Of a DNA stretch of 40,000 nt, positions 10,135-37,160 are shown in pieces. Positions within the stretch are counted from its first letter, which is position 1, and each line of letters begins with the position of its first letter. Below the pieces are notes generated by a model. The model was not told the origin of the DNA, did not search any database, and worked only from the letters and a program-made list of their open reading frames with translations. A program made the position numbers and the translations under genes. Source of the stretch: Pseudoxanthomonas sp. 10H (GTDB taxonomy: Bacteria; Pseudomonadota; Gammaproteobacteria; Xanthomonadales; Xanthomonadaceae); contig NZ_JBGNUG010000002.1 in assembly GCF_041464125.1 (NCBI RefSeq), positions 142,596 to 182,595 on the forward strand, written 5' to 3'.

Positions 10135-12885
10135 ATGCAGTCGAACACGAGGACCGCGCGCGACGCGGCGAACCATCGCACCACCCCCGCACCGCGCCGC
10201 CGCGCGCTGGCCCGCTGGTGCGCCGCCGCGCTGCTGGCCACCGTCCCCGCGCTGCAGGCCCACGCCGCCGACGCACGGCCGTGGCTGGACACCCAGCGCA
10301 GCTTCGAGGAGCGCGCCGCCGCGCTGGTGTCGCAGATGACGCTGGAGGAGAAGGCTGCGCAGATGCAGAACGACAGCCCGGCGATCGAGCGCCTGGGGGT
10401 GCCGGCCTACGACTGGTGGAACGAAGCGCTGCACGGCGTCGCCCGCGCCGGCGGGGCCACCGTGTTCCCGCAGGCGATCGGCATGGCCGCCAGCTTCGAC
10501 ATCCCGCTGATGGACCAGGTCGCCGCGGCGATCAGCGACGAGGCACGCGCCAAGCACCACCGCTTCTTCGCCGAGGGCAAGCACGGCCGCTACCAGGGCC
10601 TGACCTTCTGGTCGCCGAACATCAACATCTTCCGCGACCCGCGCTGGGGCCGCGGCCAGGAGACCTACGGCGAGGATCCCTACCTGACCTCGCGCATGGG
10701 CATCTCGTTCGTGCGCGGCCTGCAGGGCATGGACCCGGTGACCGGCGCGCCGCTGGACCCGACCTACCGCAAGCTCGACGCCACCGCCAAGCACTTCGCC
10801 GTGCACAGCGGCCCGGAGGCCGACCGCCACACCTTCGACGTGCATCCGTCCAAGCGCGACCTGTACGACACCTACCTGCCGGCGTTCGAGGCGCTGGTCA
10901 AGGAAGGCGACGTCTACGCGGTGATGGGCGCCTACAACCGCGTCTACGGCGAATCGGCCAGCGCCAGCCAGTTCCTGCTGCTGGACACCCTGCGCCGCGA
11001 CTGGGGCTTCAAGGGCTACGTGATGTCCGACTGCTGGGCCATCCGCGACATCTGGGAGAACCACAAGATCGTGGCCACTCCCGAGGAAGCGGCGGCGCTG
11101 GCGGTGAAGAAGGGCACCGAGCTGAACTGCGGCAGCACCTACGCCAAGCACCTGCCGCTGGCGGTGAAGCAGGGGCTGATCACCGAGGCCGAACTGGACG
11201 ACGCGCTGGGCCGCCTGTTCACCGCGCGGATGCGGCTGGGCATGTTCGACCCGCCGCAGCAGGTGAAATGGGCGCAGATCCCGTATTCGGTCAACCAGTC
11301 GGCCGCGCACGACGCGCTGGCGCGGAAGATGGCGCAGGCCTCGATGGTGCTGCTGAAGAACGACGGCGTGCTGCCGCTGTCGCGCGACACGAGGAAGATC
11401 GCGGTGGTCGGCCCGACCGCCGACGACACCATGGCCCTGCTCGGCAACTACTACGGCACCCCGGCCGCGCCGGTCACCGTGCTGGCCGGCCTGCGCGCGG
11501 CGCTGCCGGATGCGCAGATCACCTACGCGCGCGGCGCCGACCTGGTCGAAGGCCGCAACGACCCGGCCGCCACGCCGCTGGTCGAGGCGCAGTTCCTGCG
11601 CCCGTCCGCCGACTCGCCCGAGCGCGGCCTGCGTGGCGAGTACTTCCGCAACACCGACCTGTCCGGCACGCCGGCGCTGGTGCGGGTCGACCCGGTGATC
11701 GGCTTCAGCTGGGACCGCGGCTCGCCGACCGACAACCTGATGGCCCGTGGCGAGGCCGGCCCGGACGAGGCGGTGCCCAGCGACAACTTCTCGATCCGCT
11801 GGAGCGGCCAGCTGCTGCCGCCGGTGTCGGGCGAGTACGAGCTCGAGGCGGCCGCCAACGACGGCGTGCGCGTGTACCTGGATGGCAAGCGCGTGATCGA
11901 CCACTGGGAAAAGGCCGACCGGCTGACCTCGCACGGCGCGAAGGTGACGCTGCAGGCCGGCCGCGCCTACGACCTCCGCCTGGAATACCAGGAGCAGGAA
12001 CGCGATGCCGGCGTGCGCCTGGCCTGGCGCATGCCCGGCGCCAAGCCCGCGTTCGAGGAAGCGGTGGACGCGGCGCGCGACGCCGACGTGGTGGTGTTCG
12101 TCGGCGGCCTGACCGGCGACGTCGAAGGCGAGGAGATGAAGGTCAACTACCCGGGTTTCGCCGGCGGCGACCGCACCGACACCCGCCTGCCCGCGACCCA
12201 GCAGAAGCTGCTGGAGGCCGTGCACGCGACCGGCAAGCCGGTGGTGCTGGTGCTGACCACCGGTTCGGCGCTGGCGGTGGACTGGGCCAAGCAGCACCTG
12301 CCGGCGATCCTGGTCGCCTGGTACCCGGGCCAGCGCGGCGGCAGCGCGGTCGCCGACGTGCTGCTCGGCGACGCCAACCCCGCCGGCCGCCTGCCGGTCA
12401 CCTTCTACACCGCCGACGCGAAGATGCCCGCGTTCTCCGACTACACCATGGACGGACGCACCTACCGCTACTACGACGGCCAGCCGCTGTACCCGTTCGG
12501 CCACGGCCTGTCGTACACCCGGTTCGGCTACTCGGCGCTGGCGCTGGACCGCGCGCGTGCGGCGGCGACCGATCCGGTCACGGTCTCGGTCAAGGTGAAG
12601 AACACCGGCACCCGCGCCGGCGAGGAAGTGGTGCAGCTGTACCTGCATCCGCTCGACCCGGCCCGCGACCGCGCGGCGAAGGAACTGCGCGGCTTCCAGC
12701 GCGTGGCGCTGCAGCCGGGCGAGGAACGCACGCTGCAGTTCACCGTGGTGCCGGAGAAGGACCTGCGCACCTGGGACGAGAAGGCCGGGGCCTACGTGGT
12801 CGACCCGGGCCGCTACGAAGTGCAGGTCGGCGCGTCCAGCGCCGACATCCGCGCCCGCGTGCCGCTCACGGTGGGCAGGCGCTGA
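10135..12885 (+). CDS. GH3 beta-xylosidase/beta-glucosidase with inserted PA14 domain, secreted
   Basis: GGGAGG precedes the ATG at 10135 (alternative ATG at 10102). A signal-like N-terminus is present. GH3 blocks are TVFPQAIGMAASFD, KHFAVHSGPE and GYVMSDCWAI. The PA14-like segment is GLRGEYFRNTDLSGTPALVRVDPVIGFSWD...IRWSGQLLPPVSGEYEL. Confidence 0.92.
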   Translation: MQSNTRTARDAANHRTTPAPRRRALARWCAAALLATVPALQAHAADARPWLDTQRSFEERAAALVSQMTLEEKAAQMQNDSPAIERLGVPAYDWWNEALHGVARAGGATVFPQAIGMAASFDIPLMDQVAAAISDEARAKHHRFFAEGKHGRYQGLTFWSPNINIFRDPRWGRGQETYGEDPYLTSRMGISFVRGLQGMDPVTGAPLDPTYRKLDATAKHFAVHSGPEADRHTFDVHPSKRDLYDTYLPAFEALVKEGDVYAVMGAYNRVYGESASASQFLLLDTLRRDWGFKGYVMSDCWAIRDIWENHKIVATPEEAAALAVKKGTELNCGSTYAKHLPLAVKQGLITEAELDDALGRLFTARMRLGMFDPPQQVKWAQIPYSVNQSAAHDALARKMAQASMVLLKNDGVLPLSRDTRKIAVVGPTADDTMALLGNYYGTPAAPVTVLAGLRAALPDAQITYARGADLVEGRNDPAATPLVEAQFLRPSADSPERGLRGEYFRNTDLSGTPALVRVDPVIGFSWDRGSPTDNLMARGEAGPDEAVPSDNFSIRWSGQLLPPVSGEYELEAAANDGVRVYLDGKRVIDHWEKADRLTSHGAKVTLQAGRAYDLRLEYQEQERDAGVRLAWRMPGAKPAFEEAVDAARDADVVVFVGGLTGDVEGEEMKVNYPGFAGGDRTDTRLPATQQKLLEAVHATGKPVVLVLTTGSALAVDWAKQHLPAILVAWYPGQRGGSAVADVLLGDANPAGRLPVTFYTADAKMPAFSDYTMDGRTYRYYDGQPLYPFGHGLSYTRFGYSALALDRARAAATDPVTVSVKVKNTGTRAGEEVVQLYLHPLDPARDRAAKELRGFQRVALQPGEERTLQFTVVPEKDLRTWDEKAGAYVVDPGRYEVQVGASSADIRARVPLTVGRR

Positions 12886-13066
12886 CCCCGTTGTACCGGC
12901 CGTTCCGCTCCCCGGAGGGGCGGCCGGGCGAGGCGAGGCGGAGCCGGCGGCGACTCTCCCAGGTCGCCGGCTTCGCCGGACCTCTTTCTTCCGCATGCCG
13001 GCCCCCGTCCGGCATCGATGCCTGCGGCGGCACCTGCGCCTGCGGCATCCGCACTTCCAGGAACCG

Positions 13067-14587
13067 ATGATCCCGATGTCCGTGACTTCCGCCGTCCCCC
13101 GCCTGTCCGATGCCACCCTCGCCGCGCTGCCGGCAGCGGTACGGCGTCCCGCCTACGATCGCGCCGGCACGCGCATCGGCGTGGTCCACTTCGGCCCCGG
13201 CGCGTTCCATCGCGCGCACCAGGCCGTGTACTTCGACGACCTGCTCGCGTCCGATCCGGACTGGGCGATCAGCGCGGTGTCGCTGCACAGCGCCGGCGTG
13301 CGCGACGCGCTGCGCCCGCAGGACGGCCTGTACACGCTGGCGCTGCTGGACCAGGCGCAGGCCGACGGGTCGCCGGCGCTGCGCGTGGTCGGCTCGATCC
13401 GCGAAGTGCTGTGCGCGCCGGAGGAGGGCGCGGCGGTGCTGGCGCGGCTGGCCGACCGCGACGTGCGGCTGGTGACCCTGACCATCACCGAGAAGGGCTA
13501 CTGCCTGTCGCCGGACGGGGTGGACCTGCAGCACCCGGACATCGTGCGCGACCTGGCCACGCTTGACGCGCCGACCCGTGCACCCGTCAGTGCGCCCGTC
13601 AGTGCCATTGGCTGGCTGGTCGCCGGCCTGCGCGCGCGCCGCGCGCAGGGGCTGGAGCCGTTCACCGTGCTCAGCTGCGACAACCTGGCCGACAACGGCG
13701 GCCGCCTGCGCCGCGCGGTGCTGCAGTTCGCGCGCCAGTCCGATCCCGCGCTGGCCGACTGGATCGACACCGAAGTCGCATTCCCGCGCTCGATGGTCGA
13801 CAGCATCACCCCGGCCACCGACGACGCGCTGCGCGCCCGGGTCGCCGCGCAGCTCGGCATGGACGACGCCTGGCCGATCCAGCGCGAGCCGTACACGCAG
13901 TGGGTGGTGGAAGACGATTTCCGCAACGGCCGCCCGCCGCTGGAGCGCGCCGGCGTGGTCCTGAGCGACGACATCGCCGGCTACGACAAGGCCAAGCTGC
14001 GGCTGCTCAATGCGCCGCATTCCACGCTCGCCTACCTCGGCTCGCTGATGGGGATCGAGGCGGTGGCCGACGCGATGCGCGAGCCGGCGCTGGCCGGTTT
14101 CGTCGCCAGGCTGATGCACGAGGACATCGTGCCGTCGCTGCAGCTGCCGCAGGGCTTCGATCCGGACGCGTACATCGAGGCGATCCTGGCCCGCTTCCGC
14201 AACCCGGCCATCCGCCACCTGCTCGCGCAGATCGCCTGGGACGGCTCGCAGAAGATCCCCGTGCGCCTGCTCGGCACGATCGCCGAGGCGCTGGCCGCCG
14301 GCCGCGCCGTCGACCGGCTGTGCCTGCCGGTGGCCGGCTGGCTGCGGTTCGTGCGCCGCCAGTCGCTGGCGGGCGTGGCGATCGTCGATCCGCTGGCCGA
14401 CGCGCTGGCGCGGATCGGCGCGGCCACCACCGGCGAAGCCGCGCACGACGTCGATGCGTTCCTCGCGCTCGATGGCGTGTTCGGCCCGCTGGCCGGCGAC
14501 GCGCGTTTCGTCGAGGCGTTGCGCCGCGCGTACGCCGCGCTCGGCGACGGCTCGCCGGCCGCGGTGGCGCGCGCGCTGGCGGCGTGA
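13067..14587 (+). CDS. uxuB: mannitol-dehydrogenase-family oxidoreductase, probable fructuronate reductase (D-mannonate oxidoreductase)
   Basis: The dinucleotide-binding N-terminus is IGVVHFGPGAFHRAHQAVY. A long-chain mannitol dehydrogenase C-terminal domain follows (MVDSITPATD, KLRLLNAPHSTLAYLG). Its position in a hexuronate cluster fits. The start is ATG 13067 or 13076. Confidence 0.85.
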   Translation: MIPMSVTSAVPRLSDATLAALPAAVRRPAYDRAGTRIGVVHFGPGAFHRAHQAVYFDDLLASDPDWAISAVSLHSAGVRDALRPQDGLYTLALLDQAQADGSPALRVVGSIREVLCAPEEGAAVLARLADRDVRLVTLTITEKGYCLSPDGVDLQHPDIVRDLATLDAPTRAPVSAPVSAIGWLVAGLRARRAQGLEPFTVLSCDNLADNGGRLRRAVLQFARQSDPALADWIDTEVAFPRSMVDSITPATDDALRARVAAQLGMDDAWPIQREPYTQWVVEDDFRNGRPPLERAGVVLSDDIAGYDKAKLRLLNAPHSTLAYLGSLMGIEAVADAMREPALAGFVARLMHEDIVPSLQLPQGFDPDAYIEAILARFRNPAIRHLLAQIAWDGSQKIPVRLLGTIAEALAAGRAVDRLCLPVAGWLRFVRRQSLAGVAIVDPLADALARIGAATTGEAAHDVDAFLALDGVFGPLAGDARFVEALRRAYAALGDGSPAAVARALAA

Positions 14588-14731
14588 CGTCGGAGGGCCA
14601 TGCCGCGAGCCCCAGGCATCGGCGGTCCGGCCCTCCGTGTTGAAGCGGTACCTCCGGCGCCCGCCCGGAGGGCGATGCAAGGAAAGCGCGTCCCGGAGTA
14701 GCTGTTCCCACCCTGTCCCGTGGAGCCCCAC

Positions 14732-15580
14732 ATGCCTGCGACCCTGACCCGCCACACCACGCCCGACGGCCCGCGCTGGGCGCTCGATGGCCACTGGCTG
14801 CCGGCCGACTTCCACCTCGGGGCCTGGCTGGCGCTGCCGGCGGCGCAGGCCGACGCGCAGCTGGCCGCGCTGCCGCGCGGCGGCGCGGTCGGCGATGCGC
14901 CGCGGCTGGCGCCGATCGAGGACGCGCAGGAAGCCTGGGCCAGCGGCGTGACCTACCTCAGCAGCCGGATGGCGCGCGAGGCCGAATCGCAGAACGCCGA
15001 CGTCTACGCCAAGGTCTATTCGGCGGCGCGGCCGGAGCTGTTCTTCAAGGCCGCCGGCTGGCGCGTGCGCGGTCCCGGCGCCGGCATCCGGGTGCGCGCC
15101 GACAGCCACTGGAACGTGCCCGAGCCCGAGCTGGTCCTGCTGGTCGACGCGGCCGGCACGATCCGCGGCTGCACCGCCGGCAACGACGTGTCCTCGCGCA
15201 GCATCGAAGGCGAGAACCCGCTGTACCTGCCGCAGGCCAAGGTCTACGACGGCGCCTGCGCGATCGGCCCGGCGATCCGCCTGTGCGGCGCCGACGCGCT
15301 GCGCGACCTGCCGATCTCGCTGGCCATCGACCGCGGCGGCACCCGCGTGTTCTCCGGCGCCACCCGCACCTCGCAGATCAAGCGCACGCTGGAAGAGCTG
15401 GCCGGCTACCTGTGCCGCGAGCTGAGCTTCCCGCACGGCGCGTTCCTGTTCACCGGCACCGGCGTGGTCCCCGGCGAGGACTTCACCCTGCAGGCCGGCG
15501 ACGTGGTGCGCATCGACATCGACGGGCTGGTGCTGGAGAACGCGGTCGAAGACGCCGCGCCCGGGAGCGCGGCGCCATGA
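14732..15580 (+). CDS. fumarylacetoacetate hydrolase (FAH) family protein; candidate 2-keto-3-deoxy-pentonate dehydratase
   Basis: GGAG lies 6 nt before the ATG at 14732. The C-terminal FAH fold signature is [13 protein letters not shown]...[18 protein letters not shown]...[34 protein letters not shown]. The gene is coupled by an ATGA overlap to the following sugar-acid dehydratase. The specific substrate is inference. Confidence 0.75.
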
Positions 15581-19562: not shown

Positions 19563-20570
19563 TCAGCGGTCCAACGGACTCAGCACCCCGTGCGCGCCCC
19601 GGTTGAGGACATGGGTGTAACGCTGCGTGGTCGCCACGTCCTTGTGGCCGAGCAGCTCCTGCACCGTGCGGATGTCGGCCCCGGCTTCCAGCAGGTGGGT
19701 GGCGAAGCAGTGGCGCAGGGTGTGCGGCGTGACCGGCCGGTCGAAGCCCGACTCCAGCGCCGCCCGCCGCACCGCCTTCTGCAGCACCTTCTCGTCGATG
19801 TGGTGGCGCCGCTGCACGCCATCGCGCGGGTCCACCGAGAGGCGCGTGGCCGGGAACACGTACCGCCAGGCCAGCTCCACCGCCGCGTTCGGATACTTGC
19901 GCGCGAGCGCATGCGGCAGGTGCACGCGGCCGAACCCCGCCGCGAGGTCGCGCGCGTGCAGCACGCGCACCTCGGCCAGCTGGCGCGCCAGCGCTTCGCG
20001 CAGCGCCGCCGGCAGCACGGTCATCCGGTCCTTGCCGCCCTTGCCGTCGCGCACGAGCAGTTCGTTGCGCGCCAGGCCCACGTCCTTGACCCGCAACCGC
20101 ACGCATTCCATGAGGCGCAGGCCGCTGCCGTAGAGCAGGCCGGCCATCAGCGCCTCGCGCCCGGCCAGGCGGGCGAGCAGCTGCCCGACCTGCGCCCGCG
20201 ACAGCACCACCGGCAGCCGCTGCGGCCGCCTGGCCCGGACCACGTTCTCCATCCACGGCAGCTCGATCCCCAGCACCTCCCGGTAGAGGAACAGCAGCGC
20301 CGACAGGGCCTGGTTCTGGGTGCTGGCGGCGACGTGGTCGCGGGTCGCCAGGCGGGTGAGGAAAGCCTCCACCGCCACCCCGTCAAGTTCGCGCGGATGC
20401 CGCGGCAGGTTCGCCCGGATATACCGGCGGATCCAGTACAGGTACGCCTGCTCGGTGCGCAGGCTGTAGTGCCTGAGCCGCATCCGGCCGCGCACCTGCT
20501 CCAGCAGGCGCGGCTCCCCGCCCTGGCGTCCGCCGGAAGATATCGGGGTGTGCTCGCCGTCATAAGACAT
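19563..20570 (-). CDS. intI: integron integrase IntI (tyrosine recombinase), apparently intact
   Basis: 335 aa. AAGGAGG lies 7 nt upstream of the ATG. The N-terminal block is [30 protein letters not shown]...[15 protein letters not shown]. The IntI-specific insertion is [25 protein letters not shown]. The catalytic blocks are [33 protein letters not shown] and RYTHV. There are no internal stops. Confidence 0.95.
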
Positions 20571-20729
20571 ATCGGGGCCTCCTTGCCGCCTTTACCCGGC
20601 AGCGTGGCCCCGTCGCGGACCCCGGCGGTATCGGCCAAGTCCGTGATCGGCGTAGGAGTTTCTCGATTGACGGCCCGCCGGACGTGGCCACAGACTCGGC
20701 GCTACACCCCTGCTGGGGGTCTACTGGTA

Positions 20730-20736
20730 GTTAGGC
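20730..20736 (+). other. attI recombination core site (G|TTAGGC)
   Basis: This is the first GTTRRRY core downstream of the intI start, 160 bp from the intI ATG. The TTAGGC that follows is complementary to the R'' (GCCTAA) of the first attC at 20917, as expected for an inserted cassette. Confidence 0.75.
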
Positions 20737-20916
20737 GGGTTGTGGCGTTCGTGTTTGGGGTGGGTCGTCGGACTTCGGTAGGGGAATCGCAATGGATCGT
20801 TGGCGTGCGGCATCGCAGCGGGTCGGACGCGGGGAAGGCGTTCGGTCGGCGCGCGTCTCGCACAATCACCAGGCTGGCGCTTCGGCTATCCAGGCTTCTT
20901 GCCTGATGGGTCGCCG

Positions 20917-20976
20917 GCCTAACCACTCGTTCAAGGCGATGCCGCTTCGCGGCACGCCTTAACTCCGGCGTTAGGC
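20917..20976 (+). repeat. attC site 1 (60 bp)
   Basis: GCCTAAC...central stem TGCCGC-TTC-GCGGCA...GTTAGGC. It carries compensatory changes (AAGGCG / CGCCTT) relative to the other attCs (AAGCCG / CGGCTT). Confidence 0.88.
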
Positions 20977-20979
20977 GCG

Positions 20980-21237
20980 ATGAAGCTAAGTGGGTCTATC
21001 AGCAAGCTTGGACTCTTTCTGGCGGTTTCAATGCTGGCGGCTGGCGGCTACCTCACGGCCTTTCCCGCGGACATGGTCGCCTCGCATCCAAATATGATGC
21101 CCCGTGGGAATACACCTTCGCGCTTCGTCACGCCCACGCAGCATGTGACTCCCGCGCAATCCAGGTTCCATGGAATTGCGTTGATGGTTTTTGGCCTGGT
21201 TGTTGGTGCCGTCTCGCTGTACCGGCCCAAGGAGTGA
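20980..21237 (+). CDS. cassette 2 ORF: 85-aa hypothetical small membrane protein (two hydrophobic helices)
   Basis: It is the only sizeable plus-strand ORF in cassette 20971-21312. The ATG lies 9 nt after the cassette boundary. Hydrophobic segments are LGLFLAVSMLAAGGYL and IALMVFGLVVGAVSL. No family was recognised. Confidence 0.6.
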   Translation: MKLSGSISKLGLFLAVSMLAAGGYLTAFPADMVASHPNMMPRGNTPSRFVTPTQHVTPAQSRFHGIALMVFGLVVGAVSLYRPKE

Positions 21238-21803: not shown

Positions 21804-21817
21804 TTCAGGCGTTAGGT
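21758..21817 (+). repeat. attC site 3 (60 bp)
   Basis: CTCTAACAATTCATTCAAGCCGAACCCGCTTCGCGGGTCGGCTTAATTCAGGCGTTAGGT. R'' CTCTAA complements the cassette start TTAGAG at 21313. Confidence 0.9.
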
Positions 21818-21821
21818 GGCC

Positions 21822-22091
21822 ATGGAAGAGCTTCGCGAACTCGAAGAGACTCTGCGCGACCTTGTTCGGCAACTTGGCGAGCCGGAAGCCAAGCAATGGC
21901 GCAAACGCGTCGAGAAATACGTCGATCAGATTGCTTCCGGAAGCACATCTGGCACTCCTGCATTTTTGGCAATGTATCAGGGCGGCATGGGATCATTTCT
22001 AGACTTGCAGGGAGCCAACCCGGAGTCGCATCGGGAGCTACTCGCCTTGCGAGACCGCGCGTATGACTTGGCCAATCGCATCCGCAGATGA
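21822..22091 (+). CDS. cassette 4 ORF: ~90-aa hypothetical, predicted helical, charged N-terminus, GGMGSFLDL motif
   Basis: Start is ATG 21822 (alternative GTG 21816). It is the single ORF in cassette 21812-22161. The sequence MEELRELEETLRDLVRQLGEPEAKQWRKRVEKYV... looks coiled-coil-like. No family assigned. Confidence 0.6.
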   Translation: MEELRELEETLRDLVRQLGEPEAKQWRKRVEKYVDQIASGSTSGTPAFLAMYQGGMGSFLDLQGANPESHRELLALRDRAYDLANRIRR

Positions 22092-22107: not shown

Positions 22108-22167
22108 ACCTAACAGTTCCTTCAAGCCGACGCCGCTTCGCGGCGCGGCTTAACTCCGGCGTTAGCC
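22108..22167 (+). repeat. attC site 4 (60 bp)
   Basis: ACCTAACAGTTCCTTCAAGCCGACGCCGCTTCGCGGCGCGGCTTAACTCCGGCGTTAGCC. R'' ACCTAA complements the cassette start TTAGGT at 21812. Confidence 0.9.
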
Positions 22168-22175
22168 ATCACACT

Positions 22176-22982
22176 ATGCGTCAGTTGATTCCCGCAGCAG
22201 TCCTCGCACTTACCGCTGAGCTCAGCTCCGAGCGCGAGACGCACGCCACCTTGGACAGCCTCTTTACGTATGCCGGCGCGCCTGGCGATCCGCCAGAGGG
22301 AAGCAAGCACGCTAAAGCTCTGGCTTGGCTGCGCCGTGCCAATAGCGAGTCTGCCAACCCGCTGCAGGTGTTAGGTCGCATCCTCGAAGGCTACATGGAG
22401 CAGGTACTAGACCCGAACGACCGCTGGGACAAGGAAAAGATTGCCCAACGTGACAAGTTGGTCCGCGCACTGGCAGACGCCAATCTTCAATATGTCAAAG
22501 GTGGCCGAGTCGTCGGGGCCATGGGCACACCGACCAGAACCTTGTCGGAGTTCATTCGCGAGGGTGACCTAGAGTCAATAGATCAAGAATTTCAGCGCGC
22601 GGTCCAGAACGCCGCGACCTCCCCCCGTGAGGCCGTGTCTGCTGCAAGCAACATTCTTGAATCCGTGTGCAAGATCGTGATCTCGGATGAGGGTTTGCCC
22701 ATGCCCTCCAAGCAGGACCTACAGTCAGTGTGGAGTGTTGTGCGCAAGCACCTTGGGATTGATCCGAGCAAGATCGAAGATCAGGATCTTCAGCAGATTC
22801 TTACTGGGCTCATTTCCGTCGTACATGGCATCGGATCGCTGCGTACGCATGCGAGTTCGGCACACGGCGCGGGCAAGGCACCGTACCGCTTGGAGCCGCG
22901 TCACGCCCGGTTGGCTATTCATGCGGCTCACACTCTGGCGCTCTTCGTGCTCGAGTCTTGGAGGAAACGAGGCAATGGCTAA
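22176..22982 (+). CDS. cassette 5 ORF: 268-aa Abi_C / HEPN-like domain protein (AbiJ-like abortive-infection family candidate)
   Basis: The C-terminal ~70 aa, ILTGLISVVHGIGSLRTHASSAHGAGK...RHARLAIHAAHTLALFVLESW, looks like the Abi_C (abortive infection C-terminus) domain as I recall it. It contains an R-x6-H HEPN-type motif (R223..H230, nt 22842-22865). The stop TAA lies inside the attC5 R''. Confidence 0.6.
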   Translation: MRQLIPAAVLALTAELSSERETHATLDSLFTYAGAPGDPPEGSKHAKALAWLRRANSESANPLQVLGRILEGYMEQVLDPNDRWDKEKIAQRDKLVRALADANLQYVKGGRVVGAMGTPTRTLSEFIREGDLESIDQEFQRAVQNAATSPREAVSAASNILESVCKIVISDEGLPMPSKQDLQSVWSVVRKHLGIDPSKIEDQDLQQILTGLISVVHGIGSLRTHASSAHGAGKAPYRLEPRHARLAIHAAHTLALFVLESWRKRGNG

Positions 22983-23036
22983 CAATTCGTCCAAGCCGAC
23001 GCCGCTTCGCGGCGCGGCTTAACTCAGGTGTTAGGC
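22977..23036 (+). repeat. attC site 5 (60 bp)
   Basis: GGCTAACAATTCGTCCAAGCCGACGCCGCTTCGCGGCGCGGCTTAACTCAGGTGTTAGGC. R'' GGCTAA complements the cassette start TTAGCC at 22162. The cassette ORF stop TAA lies inside R''. Confidence 0.9.
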
Positions 23037-23039
23037 CGC

Positions 23040-23354
23040 ATGACCAACTTCACGCTCCCTTTGTTCTTTGCACTGTTCTGCCTCGCCATTGTTTGGCTGG
23101 TACTAGTGCAAATGCTTTTTCGGGCCTTGGCCGACAAGCATCCCGAGATGCACCAACGCATTGGCAGCCCTCGCGGCTTTGGGGCTCAGGCTACGTCCGC
23201 GCTTCTCAGCTTCCTGCTTACTCGCAAACCCGAATCATTGGGTGATCGCGCGGTTCTGTTACAGGCCAACGTCATGCGCGTTTTGCTGGTCGTCTACGTG
23301 GCCAGCTTTGCCATACTCGTCTACGGCATCATGTCGGCGCAGAATGCGGCCTAA
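23040..23354 (+). CDS. cassette 6 ORF: 104-aa hypothetical membrane protein
   Basis: The ATG at 23040 lies 9 nt after the cassette boundary. Hydrophobic segments are LPLFFALFCLAIVWLVLVQMLF and VLLVVYVASFAILVYGI. The stop lies inside the attC6 R''. Confidence 0.6.
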   Translation: MTNFTLPLFFALFCLAIVWLVLVQMLFRALADKHPEMHQRIGSPRGFGAQATSALLSFLLTRKPESLGDRAVLLQANVMRVLLVVYVASFAILVYGIMSAQNAA

Positions 23355-23421: not shown

Positions 23422-23649
23422 ATGAAGGACTTCAAGAGGTGGCTAGCCATCTTTCTTCCAGCAATCGGATGCCTCGCTCCTGGCTTGGTTGGCGTCACGA
23501 TTGGCCGCACGTATGCAGCGGCTCTGGGTACCTCTCCCTCTTGGCTAGGCCCGGCAGTCCTTGTCGGCTCAATCGCGTTGGTACTTGTGGGTGTTCTCTT
23601 GCTGCCTGCTGCTTTCAGGTCGCTGAGGCGCGGCAGGCGCGCGGCCTGA
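23422..23649 (+). CDS. cassette 7 ORF: 75-aa hypothetical small membrane protein
   Basis: An AGGAGG RBS lies 4-5 nt before the ATG. Hydrophobic segments are WLAIFLPAIGCLAPGLVGV and PAVLVGSIALVLVGVLLLPAAF. The stop TGA lies inside the attC7 R''. Confidence 0.65.
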   Translation: MKDFKRWLAIFLPAIGCLAPGLVGVTIGRTYAAALGTSPSWLGPAVLVGSIALVLVGVLLLPAAFRSLRRGRRAA

Positions 23650-23720: not shown

Positions 23721-23960
23721 ATGACACATGAGAGTGAAGTAGTAGATTCGCGAATCATGCTTCGGGTTATCAGTGGCGCATTGGCCGCTGTGGGCCTTCT
23801 GTCCGTAGCGTTCGCTGCACTTGAACTCTTCGCTGCTGGCTCAATTGACGGGTGGTCGGGATTGCTTGCGGTTTCCGCTTGCTACGGAATCTACCTGTTC
23901 GGCTGCTACGCAATCACTGGTCGCCTGCCGCTGGGAAGCAGGTTTGGCAAGAAGGGCTGA
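23721..23960 (+). CDS. cassette 8 ORF: 79-aa hypothetical small membrane protein
   Basis: The first ATG lies after the cassette boundary at 23698. Hydrophobic segments are VISGALAAVGLLSVAFAALELF and GLLAVSACYGIYLFGCYAI. The stop TGA lies inside the attC8 R''. Confidence 0.55.
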   Translation: MTHESEVVDSRIMLRVISGALAAVGLLSVAFAALELFAAGSIDGWSGLLAVSACYGIYLFGCYAITGRLPLGSRFGKKG

Positions 23961-24014
23961 CAACTCATTCAAGCCGAACCGGCTTCGCCAGTCGGCTCAG
24001 TTCCGGCGTCAGGC
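23955..24014 (+). repeat. attC site 8, terminal (60 bp; both cores degenerate: GGCTGAC ... GTCAGGC)
   Basis: GGCTGACAACTCATTCAAGCCGAACCGGCTTCGCCAGTCGGCTCAGTTCCGGCGTCAGGC. The central stem has one mismatch. No further attC-like sequence follows. Confidence 0.75.
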
Positions 24015-26236: not shown

Positions 26237-27421
26237 TCAGGGGCCGGCCGCGGCCGGTGGGCGCCGCGGCACCGCCAGGACCGCGTCCAGCGCCGGCTTG
26301 GGCCGGTACTGGCGGTCGAACAGCAGCGGATAGTTGGTGCGGTCGGGGATGGGATAGCCGTTCTTCCACGACATCGGATCGTGCACGCCCCACACGCTGA
26401 CCCGGTCGATCACCTCGCGCCTGCGGTGGAAGATGCCGAACAGCTCGGCGTAGCGCGCGGCCAGCCGCTGCTGCACCTCCGCCGGCAGGCCGGCCTGGTA
26501 GGGATCGAGGTAGCGCTTGAACTCGGGCAGCTGGAACTGCGGGTGCTCCATCACCGTGCCGATGACCTGGCCCTCGCGGGTCAGCGGCAGCACGTCCACG
26601 TCCAGCTCGGTGATCATCACCTTGACCCCGAGCGCGGCGTAGGCGTCGATCGCCGCCTCGATGTCGGCGGTGGACGGGTAGTTCAGGCCCCAGTGGCCCT
26701 GGATGCCGATGCCGTCGATGCGGATGCCGGCGGCCTGCAGCATCTTCACCATGCGCACGATGCCGTCGCGCTTCTCCGGCCGCCAGGCGTTGAAGTCGTT
26801 GTAGTACAGCTCCGCATCGGGCGCGTACCGGTGGGCGAAGGTGAACGCCAGGCGGACCAGCTCGTCGCCGTCGCCGATGCCTTCGACCCACCTGGTGGGA
26901 CGGTAGCGGCCGTCCTCGCCCATGACTTCGTTGACCACGTCCCAGGCATCCACGCGCCCGCGGTAGCGTCCGGCAACCTGTTCGATGTACTGGCGCATGC
27001 GCTCGACCAGCGCCTCGCGGCCGACCGGCGTGCCGTCGGGCCTGCGGAAGAACCAGTCCGGCGTCTGGTTGTGCCAGACCAGGGTGTGGCCGACGATGAA
27101 CATGCCGTGCTTCTCGCCGAAGTCCACGAACGCGTCGGCCGCGGCGAAATCCCAGGTGCCCGGCTGCGGGTTGACCACCTCGGCCTTCATCGCGTTCTCC
27201 AGGGTGATCGCGTTGAAGTGCAGCGGCACCAGCGCCTGCGCGCGCGCGTCGCGGCCGGAGACGATGTCGTCGTTGACCGCGGTGCCGAGCAGGAAGTCGC
27301 CGGCGAAGGCCTGCTTCAAGGTCTGCGCCGCGGGCCGGGCCTGCGATTCGCCGCGGCCGGCGGGAATGACGCCGGCCATCAGCGCCAGCAGTGCGAAGGT
27401 CATGGAGTAGGGCCTGCTCAT
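26237..27421 (-). CDS. GH10 endo-1,4-beta-xylanase, secreted
   Basis: This is only the last 394 codons of the 1954-aa track ORF. The ATG at 27421 is preceded by GAGGA. A signal peptide (MTFALLALMAGVIPA) is present. GH10 catalytic blocks are AWDVVNEV (acid/base) and VMITELDVDV (nucleophile), plus HTLVWHNQTPDW. Confidence 0.95.
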   Translation of the reverse strand: MSRPYSMTFALLALMAGVIPAGRGESQARPAAQTLKQAFAGDFLLGTAVNDDIVSGRDARAQALVPLHFNAITLENAMKAEVVNPQPGTWDFAAADAFVDFGEKHGMFIVGHTLVWHNQTPDWFFRRPDGTPVGREALVERMRQYIEQVAGRYRGRVDAWDVVNEVMGEDGRYRPTRWVEGIGDGDELVRLAFTFAHRYAPDAELYYNDFNAWRPEKRDGIVRMVKMLQAAGIRIDGIGIQGHWGLNYPSTADIEAAIDAYAALGVKVMITELDVDVLPLTREGQVIGTVMEHPQFQLPEFKRYLDPYQAGLPAEVQQRLAARYAELFGIFHRRREVIDRVSVWGVHDPMSWKNGYPIPDRTNYPLLFDRQYRPKPALDAVLAVPRRPPAAAGP

Positions 27422-27468
27422 CGCATTCCTCGTCGGTGGTGCGTCGGCATCGCCGCGCGATCGCGGGC

Positions 27469-30400
27469 TCAGTCGCAGCCGCGCGTGCGGGCCTGCGCCG
27501 CCCAGCCCAGCGCGCCGTCGATCATCGCCAGGTGCAGCGGCTCGGCATAGGTCGCGGCCTGGTGGCCGAGCGCGGAATAGAACACCCGGCCCGTGCCGAT
27601 GCAGCGGGTCCACACGACCGGGTGGTCGCCCATGCGCTGCTTCGGGTCGGGTTCGTAGGTGGTTTCGTCCAGGCGCGCCAGGATCCGGGTGCCGTGGCCG
27701 CTGGGCACGCGGTCGAAGGCGTACCACTCTTCCTCGCGCTGCCAGCGCGCCGGCAGCGGGCGCATCGCCGGGTGGCCAGGCTCGGCCACCGCGACGACAC
27801 CCTGCTGGAACTGCGGCGCATAGGTATGGCCGATGAACCGCGCGCCCAGCACGGTGTCGGCGTACCAGCGCCAGTCGTAGTGGGGGTCGCCGCCGGCGCC
27901 GTGCAGGGCGACCAGGCCGCCGCCCTGCTCGAGCCAGTGGCGGAAGGCATCGCGCTGGGTGGGCAGGAACGTGTCGCCGCTGGTGCTGTTGAGCACGACC
28001 ACGTCGAACTTCGCCAGCGCCTCCGGATTGAACAGCGCGGCGTTCTCGCTCACGTACACGTCCCAGCCGCGGGCCTCGCCCAGCCGGCGCAGGGCCTGGT
28101 TGGCGGCCTGGATCTGCGCGTCGTCGCGGAAGCCGTTGGTCTTGGAGAACACCAGCACCGCGCGATCGCGCACGAACGCGGGCAGCGGCGGTGGCACCGT
28201 GTCCATCACCGGCGTCGGCCAGTGGGGTGGGGTCTTGACGAAGGGCTGGCCGCCGACCTGGAGCGTGGCGCTGTCGCCACGCAGGTCGCCCGACTCGGCG
28301 TGCACCGTCACCATGCCCTGCTGCCCGGGCTGGCCGGCGATGATCGCCAGCACCTGGCCGCTGAACGCATCGCGCGCGGGCGAGGGGAACGGGGTCATGT
28401 CGGTGGGATCGCCGTTGTCGGTGGCCACGATCCGCGCCGGACCGTCGAGGCGGAAGCGCACGTGGTCGCTGGCGGTGGGCACCGGGTTGCCTTCGGCGTC
28501 GACGAAGCCGACCGTGGCGAAGGCCAGGTCGCGGCCGTCGCCGGCGATGTGGCCGCGGTCCAGCGACAGCTCCAGCCTCGCCGGCGCGCCGGCGGTGCGC
28601 ACCGTCTCGCTGGCCCACGGCTTGCCGTCGCGGTACGCCTGCACCCGCACCTCGCCGGGCTGGTAGACGACCTCGTCCCAGCGCAGGCGGTACTCGTACG
28701 GACCCTTCTTCTTCCGGCCTTGCGAAACGCCGTTGACGAACAGCTCGGCCTCGTCGCCGGAGGTGAACACATGCACCGGCGTGACCTGGCCTTCGCGGCC
28801 GGGCCAGGTCCAGTGCGGCAGCAGGTGCGCCATCGGCAGGTCCGGGCGCCAGCGCGACTGGTACAGCCAGTAGCGGTCCTTGGGGAAGCCGGCCAGGTCG
28901 ACGATGCCGGTATACGAGCTGCGCGCGTCGTAGTAGGGCGTCGGCTCGCCGAGGTAGTCGAAGCCGTTCCAGACGAACTCGCCGGCCACGTACGGATGGC
29001 GGTCCAGTGCGGCGAACACCTTGTCGGCGGAGGAGCCGAAATCGACCGCATGCAGTTCGTAGGCGCTGACCTGGCTGATGGAGGAATCGCCGCCGCTGCC
29101 GTCGCGGATCGGCGCGCTGGTTTTCGGCGTGACCGGGAACAGGTAGACGCCGCGGCTGCTGGCGGCCGAGGCGGTCTCGCTGCCCATGATCAGCTTGCCG
29201 GGGAACGCGGCGCGGAACGCCGGGTACTGTGGCGGCGTGCGGATGCGGTCGGTGCCGTCGAACTCCGGCTCCTGGCGGATGCCCTCGCCCTGGTAGTTCA
29301 GGCTGATGGTGTCGAACGCGGTGGCGAACGGCATGTCCGGCTTGGCCCAGTTCATCGAGGCGGCCGTGGGCCGGGTCGGATCCTCCTCGTGGGCGATCGC
29401 GGTGAGCCGGCGGCCGATCGCCGCGCCTTCCTCGCCGGTGTACTGCTCGCCGACCTCGTTGCCCACGCTCCAGGCGATGACCGAGGGATGGTTGCGGTCG
29501 CGGCGGACCATCGCGCGCAGGTCGGCCTCGTGCCAGTCGGGGAAGACCAGGTGGAAATCCAGCGGCGTCTTCTTCCGTTCCCAGGAGTCGAACACCTCGT
29601 CGATCACCAGCAGGCCCATCCGGTCGGTCAGCTCGAGCAGCTGCGGATCGGGCGGGTTGTGCGCCAGGCGGATCGCGTTGACGCCCATGCCGCGCAGGAT
29701 CTCCAGCTGGCGCTCGGCCGCGCGCAGGTTGAACGCGGCGCCGAGCGCGCCGAGGTCGTGGTGCTGGTTGACGCCCTGCAGGCGGACCGGTTCGCCGTTG
29801 ACGACCACGCCGCGGTCCGGATCGAAGCGGACGTCGCGGATGCCGAAGCGGGTTTCGTAGCGGTCCACGACCCTGCCGTCGCGGGTGACGGTGGTGATGG
29901 CGACGTGGCGGTGGGGCTGCTGGGACGGCGGCGGGCCCCACAGGCGCGGGCGGGCGATGCGTGCCGAGGCCTGCGCGCGCGCGCTTGCGCCGGCACCGAG
30001 GTCGAGGGCCTGCGGCGCGATGCGTGCGACGGGCGGGCCGTCGGGGCGGCCCGCTTCGTCCAGGGCGAAGATCTCGCTGGCGACCAGCACGCGCGCGGCG
30101 CGTGGCCCGGCGTTGTCGACATCCACGCGCAGGTCCACCGTCGCCGCGTCCGCCGACACGTCGTGGGTGGTGACGTGTGTGCCCCACTGCGCCACGTGCA
30201 CCGGGTCGGCGATGGTCAGCCACACGTCGCGGTACAGGCCGCCGCCCGGGTACCAGCGCGCCGATTCGGGCGGATTGTCCAGGCGGATGACGAGCTGGTT
30301 GTCGCCGCCGAACTCGATGTACGGGGTGAGGTCGACGCGCCAGGAGTTGTAGCCGTAGGGCCAGCCGCCGACCAGCCGGCCGTTGAGCCAGACCGTGGCA

Positions 30401-31014
30401 TAGGACATCGCGCCGCCCACATCGAGGAACACGCGCCGGCCCGCGGCGCTGGCGGGAAGGTCGAGCGCACGCCGGTACCAGCCCACGCCCCAGCTCGGCA
30501 GGCGGCCCATGCCGCCGTACGGGCCTTCGACCAGGAACGGGCCGGCGATCGCCCAGTCGTGCGGGAGGGTCACCGTCTGCCACGCGCGGTCGTCGAAGTC
30601 GCGCTGCAGGAAGGCGACGTCGCCGCCGGGCGGCGGGCCGTCGGGGCGCGCATGCCGGCGCGCCGGATCGGCGATGAAGGGATTGGCGGTCGGCAGGATC
30701 CACGGCTTGAGCACGGGGCGCGTGCGCTCGACCTTTTCGGCCGCGTCGGGTCGCGCATCGGCGACCTTGCCGTCGGCGCTCTGCACGACCTCGGGGCGCA
30801 CGTCGTAGTCCAGGCGGCCGTCCACGCCCGGCGGATCGCCGCGGTGGAAGCGCCAGCCGTCGTCGAGGCGGATGCGTTCGCGCGGGCCGTCGGCGGACGC
30901 CGCACGCGCAGGAAGCACGACGGCCGCGGCGAGCGCGAACAGCAGCAGGAGGGCGGCGGCGCCGGTGCCTGCGGGGCGGGGAATCGCGGGCGCTGCCGCC
31001 GGGGTCTTCTGCAT
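27469..31014 (-). CDS. GH2 glycoside hydrolase fused to a C-terminal ThuA-like domain, secreted (1181 aa)
   Basis: A GGAGG RBS and a signal peptide are present. GH2 blocks are WLNGRLVGGWPYGYNSWRVDLTPYI, GVNAIRLAHNPP and IAWSVGNEV. The last ~240 aa (LVFSKTNGFRDD...LVALHGAGG...MGDHPVVWTR..GTGRVFYSALGH) match the ThuA (trehalose-utilisation) domain pattern. Confidence 0.85.
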   Translation of the reverse strand: MQKTPAAAPAIPRPAGTGAAALLLLFALAAAVVLPARAASADGPRERIRLDDGWRFHRGDPPGVDGRLDYDVRPEVVQSADGKVADARPDAAEKVERTRPVLKPWILPTANPFIADPARRHARPDGPPPGGDVAFLQRDFDDRAWQTVTLPHDWAIAGPFLVEGPYGGMGRLPSWGVGWYRRALDLPASAAGRRVFLDVGGAMSYATVWLNGRLVGGWPYGYNSWRVDLTPYIEFGGDNQLVIRLDNPPESARWYPGGGLYRDVWLTIADPVHVAQWGTHVTTHDVSADAATVDLRVDVDNAGPRAARVLVASEIFALDEAGRPDGPPVARIAPQALDLGAGASARAQASARIARPRLWGPPPSQQPHRHVAITTVTRDGRVVDRYETRFGIRDVRFDPDRGVVVNGEPVRLQGVNQHHDLGALGAAFNLRAAERQLEILRGMGVNAIRLAHNPPDPQLLELTDRMGLLVIDEVFDSWERKKTPLDFHLVFPDWHEADLRAMVRRDRNHPSVIAWSVGNEVGEQYTGEEGAAIGRRLTAIAHEEDPTRPTAASMNWAKPDMPFATAFDTISLNYQGEGIRQEPEFDGTDRIRTPPQYPAFRAAFPGKLIMGSETASAASSRGVYLFPVTPKTSAPIRDGSGGDSSISQVSAYELHAVDFGSSADKVFAALDRHPYVAGEFVWNGFDYLGEPTPYYDARSSYTGIVDLAGFPKDRYWLYQSRWRPDLPMAHLLPHWTWPGREGQVTPVHVFTSGDEAELFVNGVSQGRKKKGPYEYRLRWDEVVYQPGEVRVQAYRDGKPWASETVRTAGAPARLELSLDRGHIAGDGRDLAFATVGFVDAEGNPVPTASDHVRFRLDGPARIVATDNGDPTDMTPFPSPARDAFSGQVLAIIAGQPGQQGMVTVHAESGDLRGDSATLQVGGQPFVKTPPHWPTPVMDTVPPPLPAFVRDRAVLVFSKTNGFRDDAQIQAANQALRRLGEARGWDVYVSENAALFNPEALAKFDVVVLNSTSGDTFLPTQRDAFRHWLEQGGGLVALHGAGGDPHYDWRWYADTVLGARFIGHTYAPQFQQGVVAVAEPGHPAMRPLPARWQREEEWYAFDRVPSGHGTRILARLDETTYEPDPKQRMGDHPVVWTRCIGTGRVFYSALGHQAATYAEPLHLAMIDGALGWAAQARTRGCD

Positions 31015-31032
31015 CGTGCCGTCGCCTCCGTA

Positions 31033-32457
31033 TCAGAGCCGGTAGGCGCGCTTGGGCAGGTGGTAGGCCAGGTCGATGGCCACGTCGGCGGCCTCGTCCT
31101 CGTCGATGCGGTGCTCGGCCACCAGCTTCGCCAGCACTGCGCAGTCGATGCGGCGGGCGACGTCGTGGCGCGCCGGGATCGACAGGAACGCGCGGGTGTC
31201 GTCGTTGAAGCCGACCGTGTTGTAGAAACCCGCGGTGGCCAGCGTCTGCTCGCGGAAGCGCCACATGCCTTCGGGCGCATCGTGGAACCACCAGGCCGGG
31301 CCCAGGAACAGGCTCGGATAGTGGCCGGCCATCGGCCCCAGTTCGCGCGAGTAGGTGCTCTCGTCGAGGGTGAACAGGATCAGGGTGAAGCCGGGCTCGT
31401 TGCCGAAGCGGTCCAGCAGCGGCTTGAGCGCGTGCACGTACTCGGTCGCCACCGGCAGGTCGGCGCCCATGTTGCGGCCGTGGCGCTGGAACAGCCGCGG
31501 GTTGTGGTTGCGGAAGCAGCCCGGGTGGATCTGCATCACCAGGCCGTCGTCCAGGCTCATCGCGGCCATCTCGGTCAGCACCTGGGCGCGGAACAGCTCG
31601 GCCTCGGCCGGGGTGAAGCGGCCGGAGACGACCTTGGCGAACAGCAGCCGCGCCTCGTCCGGCGACAGGTCGGCGGTGGCGCAGGTGGGGTGGCCGTGGT
31701 CGGTCGACGTGGCGCCCATCGCGGCGAAGAACGCGCGGCGCTGGCGGTGCGCGCGCAGGTAGCCCTGCCAGCTGTGCACGTCCTCGCCGGTCAGCTCGCC
31801 GAAGCGGCGCAGCGCCTCGGGGAACTGCTCGTGCTCGGGATCGACCACGTCGTCGGGCCGGTAGGCGGTGACCACCCGGCCCTGCCAGCCGCTGGCGCGG
31901 ATCGCGGCGTGGTGCTCGAGTGGGTCCAGCGGAGACTCGGTGGTGGCGATGACCTCGATGCCGAAGCGCTCGAACAGGGCGCGCGGGCGGAAGGCGTCGG
32001 TCTGCAGCGCGGCGGTGATGGTGTCGTAGTAGTCGTCGGCGGTCCCCGCATCCAGCCGCGTGCGCAGGCCGAACACGTCGTGGAAGACATGGTTGAGCCA
32101 CATCGAGGAGGGCGTGCCGCGGAACAGGTGGAAGTTCCCGGCGAACACCCGCCAGGCCGCGCGCGGGTCGACCTCGGCGCGCGACCCGTCCGCGCGCGGG
32201 ATGCCCAGCGCATCGAGCGGGATCCCCTGGCTGTAGAGCATGCGGAAGACGTAGTGGTCGGGTACCAGCAGCAGTTCGGTGGCGTTGGCGAAGGCGGCGT
32301 TGCCGGCGAACCAGGCCGGGTCGGTGTGCCCGTGCGGGCTGACGATCGGCAGCCCGGCCACCTGCGCGTACAGGCGGCGCGCGATCGCGCGCGGGGTCGG
32401 GTCGGCCGCGAACCGGCGGGGTTCGTGGAGGTGCAGCGGCTGGCCGGGGGTGGTCAT
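31033..32457 (-). CDS. uxaC: glucuronate isomerase (uronate isomerase)
   Basis: 474 aa. Blocks are IARRLYAQVAGLPIVSPHGHTDPAWF, PDHYVFRMLYSQG and FNDDTRAFLSIPARHD, typical of UxaC. Confidence 0.93.
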   Translation of the reverse strand: MTTPGQPLHLHEPRRFAADPTPRAIARRLYAQVAGLPIVSPHGHTDPAWFAGNAAFANATELLLVPDHYVFRMLYSQGIPLDALGIPRADGSRAEVDPRAAWRVFAGNFHLFRGTPSSMWLNHVFHDVFGLRTRLDAGTADDYYDTITAALQTDAFRPRALFERFGIEVIATTESPLDPLEHHAAIRASGWQGRVVTAYRPDDVVDPEHEQFPEALRRFGELTGEDVHSWQGYLRAHRQRRAFFAAMGATSTDHGHPTCATADLSPDEARLLFAKVVSGRFTPAEAELFRAQVLTEMAAMSLDDGLVMQIHPGCFRNHNPRLFQRHGRNMGADLPVATEYVHALKPLLDRFGNEPGFTLILFTLDESTYSRELGPMAGHYPSLFLGPAWWFHDAPEGMWRFREQTLATAGFYNTVGFNDDTRAFLSIPARHDVARRIDCAVLAKLVAEHRIDEDEAADVAIDLAYHLPKRAYRL

Positions 32458-32656
32458 GGCGTCGGTATCGGCGGGGGGGGCGGGGGGGGGCGGCCGCCCG
32501 CCCGCCCGGCCACCTGCGCGTACAGGCGGCGCGCGATCGCGCGCTGGGTCGGGTCGGACGCGAACAGGCGGTCTTCGTGGAGGTGCAGCGGCTGGCCGGG
32601 GGTGGTCATGGCGTCGGTATCGGCTGGGGGTGCGGGGAGGGCCTGCGGGCGGTCAG
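32353..32656. repeat. 152-bp tandem direct duplication spanning the uxaC start codon and upstream leader (copy A 32353-32504, copy B 32505-32656; high-identity core 120 bp)
   Basis: Core A (32353-32472) versus core B (32505-32624) has 5 mismatches by eye. Copy B keeps an ATG at 32609-32607 (minus strand) and 35 uxaC-like codons (MTTPGQPLHLHEDRLFASDPTQRAIARRLYAQVAG). Confidence 0.9.
32473..32490. repeat. two adjacent homopolymers, G8 (32473-32480) and G9 (32482-32490), 16 nt upstream of the uxaC ATG
   Basis: Read directly as GGC GGGGGGGG C GGGGGGGGG C. The homologous stretch in copy B is TGGGGGTG C GGGGAGGG. Confidence 0.9.
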
Positions 32657-35523: not shown

Positions 35524-35604
35524 CGTGTGCTTCCTCGGCATTTCATGGCCACGGCGCCACGCGGCGCCGCAACCGGGGTTTCGCGTGCCCGCGGGCACGC
35601 GGCG

Positions 35605-36912: not shown

Positions 36913-36994
36913 GCCACAACCCCGGCCAGCCGGCGGTTTCGCAGTGGATGCATGCAATGCCCCTCCCAGGGCACGGCCAGGCAGGCCGATTTTC

Positions 36995-37008
36995 TGATAG
37001 CGCTATCA
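36995..37008. promoter_or_regulatory. XylR-box variant, perfect palindrome TGATAGCGCTATCA
   Basis: Perfect 14-bp palindrome located 83 bp upstream of the exuT-like ATG. It differs from the 37161 box only at the symmetric positions 3 and 12. Confidence 0.6.
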
Positions 37009-37160
37009 TAATCACACCGCGCGCCGATGCGGCCGCATGCGTCGCCGCCTCATACGAATTGATGAATTCGTCGGGAAAAACGTGGTGCGACGCATCATCA
37101 GACCCGCGCCGGCGGACCCTTCCGACAGTCATGCTGCTATGCAGCGTGCGCCCCCGGAAA

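Follow-up and report, generated by a model that had tools for sequence, protein, structure and literature searches.

A predicted AbiJ/Abi_C-family HEPN ribonuclease carried as a single-gene integron cassette in Pseudoxanthomonas sp. 10H

A chromosomal integron of Pseudoxanthomonas sp. 10H has as its fifth cassette the gene for a 268-aa protein that is a well-supported candidate for a HEPN ribonuclease of the AbiJ/Abi_C family, and the role that its sequence makes most likely is single-protein anti-phage defence, possibly directed also against other mobile elements. We consider it quite probable that the product is a latent single-protein enzyme that would receive a phage cue through its N-terminal domain and abort infection by RNA cleavage at R223/H230. 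The gene was analysed within a window of 40,000 nt (the whole stretch of DNA under study, to which all positions refer unless another locus is named). A first-pass annotation, made from the letters of this window, had read the protein as Abi_C/HEPN-like; Pfam, the PADLOC match to the C-terminal part and the conservation of the motif support this reading, and a fold search agrees with it though at no significant E-value; from these results we infer the function. An exact-sequence look-up retrieved the identical protein as WP_372018040.1 of Pseudoxanthomonas sp. 10H, which RefSeq names "abortive infection family protein".

A single-gene cassette in an integron array

The integron of Pseudoxanthomonas sp. 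10H is complete and chromosomal, and its integrase is intact (Table 1). Eight attC sites follow the attI-like core on the + strand and the array ends at 24014; the number given to cassette 5 in the first-pass annotation is therefore correct, the cassette being the fifth of eight when counted from the attI (GTTAGGC at 20730). We place its limits at 22162-23030 because the R' boxes lie at 22161 (GTTAGCC) and 23030 (GTTAGGC); of the span proposed earlier, 22162-23036, the start was exact and the end differs by no more than the R' box. The attC sites on either side of the cassette have an identical 31-mer in common, where chance would give 0 matches. Cassette 5 thus has one ORF, is bounded by attC sites, is oriented with the array and lies near intI and attI. 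The GC content of the cassette array (56-59%, versus approximately 72% in the host) shows that the array is of foreign origin.

Table 1. Integron, cassette and protein features (window positions, and conservation of single residues among 68 relatives)
Feature	Position	Strand	Remarks
intI, integron integrase	19563..20570	-	TIGR02249 472 bits (cut-off 265); Pfam Phage_integrase and SAM_4
attI-like core GGGGTCTACTGGTAGTTAGGCG	20716..20737	+	GTTAGGC at 20730; array starts here
Upstream attC, part of cassette 4	22110..22167	+	58 nt; covariance model 82.2 bits; R' box GTTAGCC at 22161
Cassette 5	22162-23030	+	869 bp, between two 58-nt attC sites; limits from R' boxes
Abi_C-family gene	22176..22982	+	ATG start; 268 aa; stop codon included; from the ORF list
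N-terminal domain, aa 1-115	22176..22520	+	five helices and a beta-hairpin; pLDDT >90
C-terminal all-helical HEPN-like domain, aa 123-266	22542..22973	+	from the secondary structure of the model
R-Thr-x5-H motif, predicted catalytic residues	22842..22865	+	R223 at 22842-22844; H230 at 22863-22865
attC of cassette 5	22979..23036	+	58 nt; covariance model 90.9 bits; R' box GTTAGGC at 23030
R223			kept in 67/68 relatives
E162			kept in 67/68 relatives
H230			kept in 64/68 relatives
R242			kept in 64/68 relatives
R141			kept in 63/68 relatives
H243			kept in 60/68 relatives

The 268-aa ORF described earlier, with the sequence quoted for it, is present on the + strand and takes up 807 of the 869 bp of the cassette. 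Its TAA stop codon falls inside the R'' box of the downstream attC, and at the other end only 8 nt separate the upstream R' box (22161-22167) from the ATG at 22176; these 8 nt contain no Shine-Dalgarno-like sequence. No promoter-like site or terminator was found within cassette 5, and an Rfam search of the window gave no match. Since the cassette has no promoter-like site and so short a distance from R' box to ATG, its gene is presumably transcribed by read-through from the integron promoter, and a promoter-less fifth cassette may be poorly expressed in Pseudoxanthomonas sp. 10H. Very short leaders, of 8-15 nt from the R' box of the attC to the start codon, were seen in the homologous cassettes of the window (22162-22178) and of five other loci (L008, L029, L030, L032 and L038), which come from different genera; CATCACACT-ATG and ACTCATAGCYC-GTG are two examples, and none of these leaders is Shine-Dalgarno-like. 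Such short-leader Abi_C cassettes may start translation in an unusual way, or in coupling with the cassette that precedes them.

The rest of the array held no match to a defence family, and its single match was to DUF6966 in cassette 4 (window 21816-22091), whose 91-aa protein barely passes the Pfam threshold (27.2 bits, cut-off 27) and whose gene is not conserved beside Abi_C homologues elsewhere. The first cassette past the attI (window 20731-20970, 240 bp) is devoid of a convincing ORF; it may be empty or non-coding, possibly with a regulatory or promoter role for the array. Four of the eight cassettes (20980-21237, 23040-23354, 23422-23649 and 23721-23960) have genes for small, hydrophobic and apparently membrane-embedded proteins of 75-104 aa, which matched nothing in Pfam or PADLOC. 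The last attC (window 23957-24014) has the core boxes CTGAC...GTCAGGC instead of the usual CTAAC...GTTAGGC, and because these boxes are degenerate the terminal cassette is probably no longer excisable. Downstream of the integron, in high-GC sequence, an open frame of 3,206 aa runs through 27391-37011 on the + strand, which could be a giant gene or a high-GC artefact.

Family assignment and domain architecture of the encoded protein

The Abi_C domain, which the first-pass annotation had proposed, is borne out by Pfam: PF14355 covers aa 185-260 and model positions 3-83 of 83 with 75.8 bits (E 2.8e-21), a score three times the gathering cut-off of 24, and all 68 diverse relatives match Abi_C as well. 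PADLOC, which had been suggested as a check, returned its AbiJ model (PDLC02347, E 2e-14), but over the C-terminal part only (aa 154-260, model positions 170-275 of 281); because the alignment is limited in this way, an automated caller with coverage rules might miss the AbiJ call. Beyond these models, PHROG 23253, whose function is not known, matches aa 87-264, and NCBIfam has no specific model for the 268-aa protein. The family itself is large, with more than 2,000 matches in a database clustered at 90%, among them many full-length ones of 64-99% identity, and with 2,693 clusters at E <=1e-3 in a 50%-clustered library, of which 186 at E <=1e-30. When solved structures were searched by sequence, first with the protein itself as query and also with a profile of 68 sequences, chance or repeat artefacts were all that came back: a match to ribose-5-phosphate isomerase (E 0.54) was rejected as chance, and designed armadillo-like repeats, matching a 24-residue stretch, were rejected as a repeat-protein artefact.

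An AlphaFold2 model of the full-length protein, built on 61 homologues (mean pLDDT 87.3, pTM 0.56), consists of two domains, between which aa 117-120 form a linker of low confidence. When modelled alone, the N-terminal domain reached a pLDDT of 92.3 and a pTM of 0.85. The boundary seen in the model agrees with the existence of relatives that align over aa ~110-265 only, behind unrelated N-termini. These results redraw the uncharacterised N-terminal part, earlier put at about 190 aa: no function could be assigned to aa 1-115, as had been said, but the part extends over about 115 aa and not 190, because Pfam Abi_C spans no more than the second half of the HEPN domain, which is roughly 145 aa long and starts near aa 123. 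As to the four-helix HEPN bundle that had been expected, the C-terminal domain is modelled as an all-helical bundle and HEPN structures top the PDB search, but no Foldseek E-value was significant. The best PDB match of this domain is the HEPN protein 2hsb (probability 1.0, TM 0.61 on the target, E non-significant), followed by Csm6 (8jh1), sacsin HEPN and a HEPN-MNT toxin, with 3o10 and 7bxo_H among the top matches. Loop residues 227-231 are poorly modelled (pLDDT <50). Foldseek against viral structures (BFVD) gave nothing meaningful.

For the N-terminal domain, the search of PDB by Foldseek with the domain-only model gave no match (best E 0.38, TM <0.4), and the BAG-domain and 14-3-3 helices that appeared were rejected as generic helix matches. 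Neither Pfam, NCBIfam nor PADLOC recognised this domain in the Pseudoxanthomonas protein, nor did Pfam across the 68 relatives; in particular, the Pfam models AbiJ_NTD3, AbiJ_NTD4 and AbiJ_NTD5 had no match at E <=1 in the protein or in the 68 full-length relatives. One relative of 426 aa (P0153) carries an AbiJ_NTD3 domain (E 6e-42) in front of a region that shares 45% identity with aa 23-262 of the Pseudoxanthomonas protein. By this layout the latter is the two-domain core of a subfamily to which some members add an N-terminal NTD3. Another relative (P0141, 510 aa as called) has a C-terminal fragment of Hsp70 fused to a full Abi_C protein, and this fusion is most likely a gene-calling artefact.

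The R-x6-H motif reported by the first-pass annotation is indeed present, as R-T-H-A-S-S-A-H within SLRTHASSAHGAGK, with R223 and H230 at the nucleotides assigned to them. Its conservation was followed in 68 full-length diverse relatives, 31-81% identical to the protein (Table 1). Position 224 is polar in 63 of the 68 (T in 53, N in 7, S in 3), so that the R-polar-x5-H motif, as defined for SadR, is found here as R223-T224-x5-H230. Across the same relatives mean identity is 34% in the N-terminal domain versus 47% in the HEPN domain, a pattern of variability that fits a putative conserved effector joined to what may be a faster-evolving recognition or regulatory module.

Distribution, proposed function and alternatives

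Comparison with other genomes shows that the Abi_C cassette has travelled from one genome to another and to different places in arrays. The window and Lysobacter daejeonensis GH1-9 (L004) are similar in nucleotide sequence only over 22161-23034, which agrees with the edges of the cassette within a few nucleotides, while the copy of L. daejeonensis stands at a different array position and between unrelated flanks. In that genome (contig20, L004 5900-6870) the cassette comes first in an attC array that begins at a GTTGGCC site right behind an NnrS gene; no integron integrase was found within 6 kb of it, and the arrangement resembles a cluster of attC sites lacking an integrase, or else an insertion at a GTT site other than attI. 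With a covariance model built from 19 attC sites, we found attC sites of 56-128 nt, unrelated in sequence, immediately flanking homologues in Marilutibacter maris, Thiobacillus, Rhizobacter, a Lysobacterales MAG, Derxia gummosa, a Comamonadaceae chromosome and several other MAGs; one further homologue locus (L030), the sole one with an integrase fragment, has a piece of intI approximately 170 nt upstream. On account of the attC-flanked loci and of this fragment, at least 11 of 61 genome loci are cassette-borne, a lower bound given that the covariance model is narrow. Just upstream of the M. maris homologue (L006 800-840) lies GGGGTCTACTAGTAAGTTGGCC, which resembles the attI core of the window (20716-20737); the 838 nt of sequence upstream of this homologue yielded no integrase coding sequence. 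In Cognatilysobacter bugurensis the homologue (L001, 8001-8819) is 82% identical, has no attC flanks and sits approximately 2 kb past the end of an oppositely oriented integron array (10836-15174), whose attC sites are nearly identical to those of the window.

Homologues are also found outside integrons. The one of Rubrivivax gelatinosus belongs to a defence island, beside Thoeris (SIR2-STALD and TIR), an AAA_13 ATPase, Mrr and TA genes. Plasmids carry homologues in 186 records, of which 82 are predicted to be conjugative, with full-length relatives in 115, and one phage homologue occurs in Escherichia phage ESSI2_ev040. Several others are inserted among housekeeping genes, for example those of ribonucleotide reductase and Mfd, where no defence island could be recognised, and such settings weigh against a defence role.

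The action of this protein is best pictured as follows. The Abi_C protein would be made in a latent state until a phage component lifts the inhibition through the N-terminal domain, for which we propose the role of a sensor or autoinhibitory module; the HEPN domain, probably dimeric, would pair two R...H motifs and, once activated, would cut RNA, whereupon translation would stop and the infection would be aborted. AbiJ and SadR suggest, by analogy, that a single-strand annealing or recombination protein may act as the trigger. We infer ribonuclease activity, latency, the sensor or autoinhibitor role, dimerisation and the nature of the trigger. Three other readings of the gene are less likely than a latent defence RNase.

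One of them is that cassette 5 encodes an addiction toxin that stabilises the array or its carrier element, the antitoxin being supplied in trans or by its own N-terminal domain. In favour of such a role, chromosomal integrons commonly contain TA cassettes, HEPN proteins often act as TA toxins, the type III TA systems include AbiV and AbiF, and the homologues of Rubrivivax and C. bugurensis lie near TA genes. The 869-bp cassette, however, leaves no room for an antitoxin gene and contains no tandem repeats that could serve as a type III RNA antitoxin; cassette 5 has neither an adjacent antitoxin gene nor a tandem-repeat RNA beside it. When all ORFs within 3 kb were compared all against all in 54 loci, no neighbour was common to more than four of them, and the families that reached up to four came from loci of related genera. 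Because the cassette has neither space for a partner nor an RNA antitoxin, and because the 54 loci show no recurrent neighbour, the Abi_C gene is autonomous, which upholds the earlier description of a stand-alone gene. Dependence on an antitoxin in trans would moreover bar the cassette from new hosts, yet it is found in many genera and array positions, and the toxin explanation seems to us improbable.

A second explanation holds that the gene is a silent or decaying passenger, too distant from the integron promoter to have a current function in this host. It is indeed the fifth cassette, with no promoter-like site and no Shine-Dalgarno-like sequence in its 8-nt leader, but the short leader without such a sequence recurs in homologous cassettes elsewhere, and silence in Pseudoxanthomonas sp. 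10H would leave the encoded product unchanged. The frame is also intact: compared with the L. daejeonensis copy (96% amino acid and 83% nucleotide identity), dN/dS is 0.022 at a dS of 1.26, where synonymous divergence is saturated. Because of this ratio at such divergence, the Abi_C gene is seen to be under strong purifying selection and is no decaying passenger, and we give this explanation a low probability. The last one, by which the protein would have the HEPN fold but bind or process RNA in a housekeeping or regulatory capacity outside any conflict with phages, is the least probable of the three, for although some HEPN families are non-defensive and several homologues adjoin housekeeping genes (ribonucleotide reductase, Mfd), the family has a patchy, mobile distribution (integron cassettes, 186 plasmids, one phage and a defence island), as is typical of accessory conflict genes, the array GC (56-59% vs ~72% in the host) marks a foreign origin, and the relatives keep the R/H pair that proven defence RNases also have.

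Part of the picture drawn here is already known, namely the RefSeq annotation of the exact protein, an Abi_C defence cassette in an integron (Taranis) and a motif-dependent Abi_C RNase (SadR). The mild novelty lies in the two-domain subfamily, for whose N-terminal domain no relative is known, and in the recurrence of this subfamily as a cassette with many attC types in Beta- and Gammaproteobacteria. A bolder reading, which we hold only tentatively, would be that the 115-aa N-terminal domain, which some of the AbiJ_NTD3 proteins also have, is a phage-sensing or autoinhibitory module not described before, that together with the HEPN domain it forms one of the smallest self-regulated abortive-infection proteins, and that the two-domain family is a recurrent cassette passing between genera of Beta- and Gammaproteobacteria with very different attC types. 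On that reading the family would lend itself to studying how an RNase with lethal potential is passed on as a promoter-less and partner-less cassette. The present case adds an example from Xanthomonadales/Lysobacterales to chromosomal integrons as stores of phage defence, so far mostly those of Vibrio, and it depicts one AbiJ-type subfamily that circulates via cassette, conjugative plasmids, phage and defence islands. As a compact and partner-less predicted HEPN RNase with a clean two-domain model, the protein is usable for questions on latency and N-terminal sensing in the AbiJ type; the practical value is modest and no new category is opened.

Comparison with known systems

AbiJ (Abi-859) of Lactococcus lactis was placed in the HEPN RNase superfamily by Anantharaman et al. 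in 2013, who proposed that the variable N-terminal domains of AbiJ proteins bind phage components and may restrain the toxin domain, and who listed some HEPN families as non-defensive (PMC3710099). Like AbiJ, the Pseudoxanthomonas protein has a C-terminal HEPN domain with R-polar-x5-H and belongs to single-gene systems of approximately 270-280 aa in which a variable N-terminal domain precedes a conserved HEPN effector. The two differ in that only aa 154-260 align to the AbiJ model (170-275 of 281), in that the 115-aa N-terminus matches none of AbiJ_NTD3, NTD4 and NTD5, and in that the gene described here is carried on an integron cassette by a high-GC gammaproteobacterium.

A close parallel for the proposed mechanism is SadR, an Abi_C protein of S. 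aureus that acts alone, breaks down RNA in vitro and defends against both phages and plasmids, and in which the substitutions R225A, N226A and H232A within RNEYGDAH abolish both RNase activity and defence (PMC13590631). Both are lone Abi_C proteins, and the spacing of RNEYGDAH equals that of RTHASSAH; no similarity was detected between them outside the Abi_C domain. While RNase activity and defence have been demonstrated for SadR, for the Pseudoxanthomonas protein they are predicted from sequence. The genomic settings also differ, since the SadR gene adjoins rlmH or sits in SCCmec whereas the present gene lies in an integron. In the classification of Abi_C proteins given with SadR, the Pseudoxanthomonas protein would belong to the "no NTD" class, which is by far the largest, with 2,257 of 2,815 proteins (PMC13590631). 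[quoted passage not shown]

With regard to the carrier, a closely similar case is Taranis, an Abi_C cassette of the V. cholerae integron for which phage resistance was shown (Darracq et al., 10.1101/2024.07.02.601686), and a HEPN AbiU2 cassette of V. mimicus protects against T4 and T7; the statement of the first-pass annotation that integron cassettes carry phage-defence genes had thus already been published, with these two cassettes among the examples. Taranis, like cassette 5, is a single-gene Abi_C cassette of a sedentary chromosomal integron, and its anti-phage activity is experimentally proven. Its N-terminus is reported to be distantly related to AbiJ_NTD5, whereas no such relationship was detected for the Pseudoxanthomonas protein, and the two are likened here by description only. 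In architecture, the protein is also close to AbiJ_NTD3 proteins such as the 426-aa relative mentioned above, which have the same N-terminal helical and HEPN domains (45% identity over aa 23-262) but carry in front of them an extra AbiJ_NTD3 domain of 150 aa (E 6e-42), the Pseudoxanthomonas protein being the shorter, two-domain form. With AbiJ of L. lactis, SadR and Taranis, what it has in common is the C-terminal domain only.
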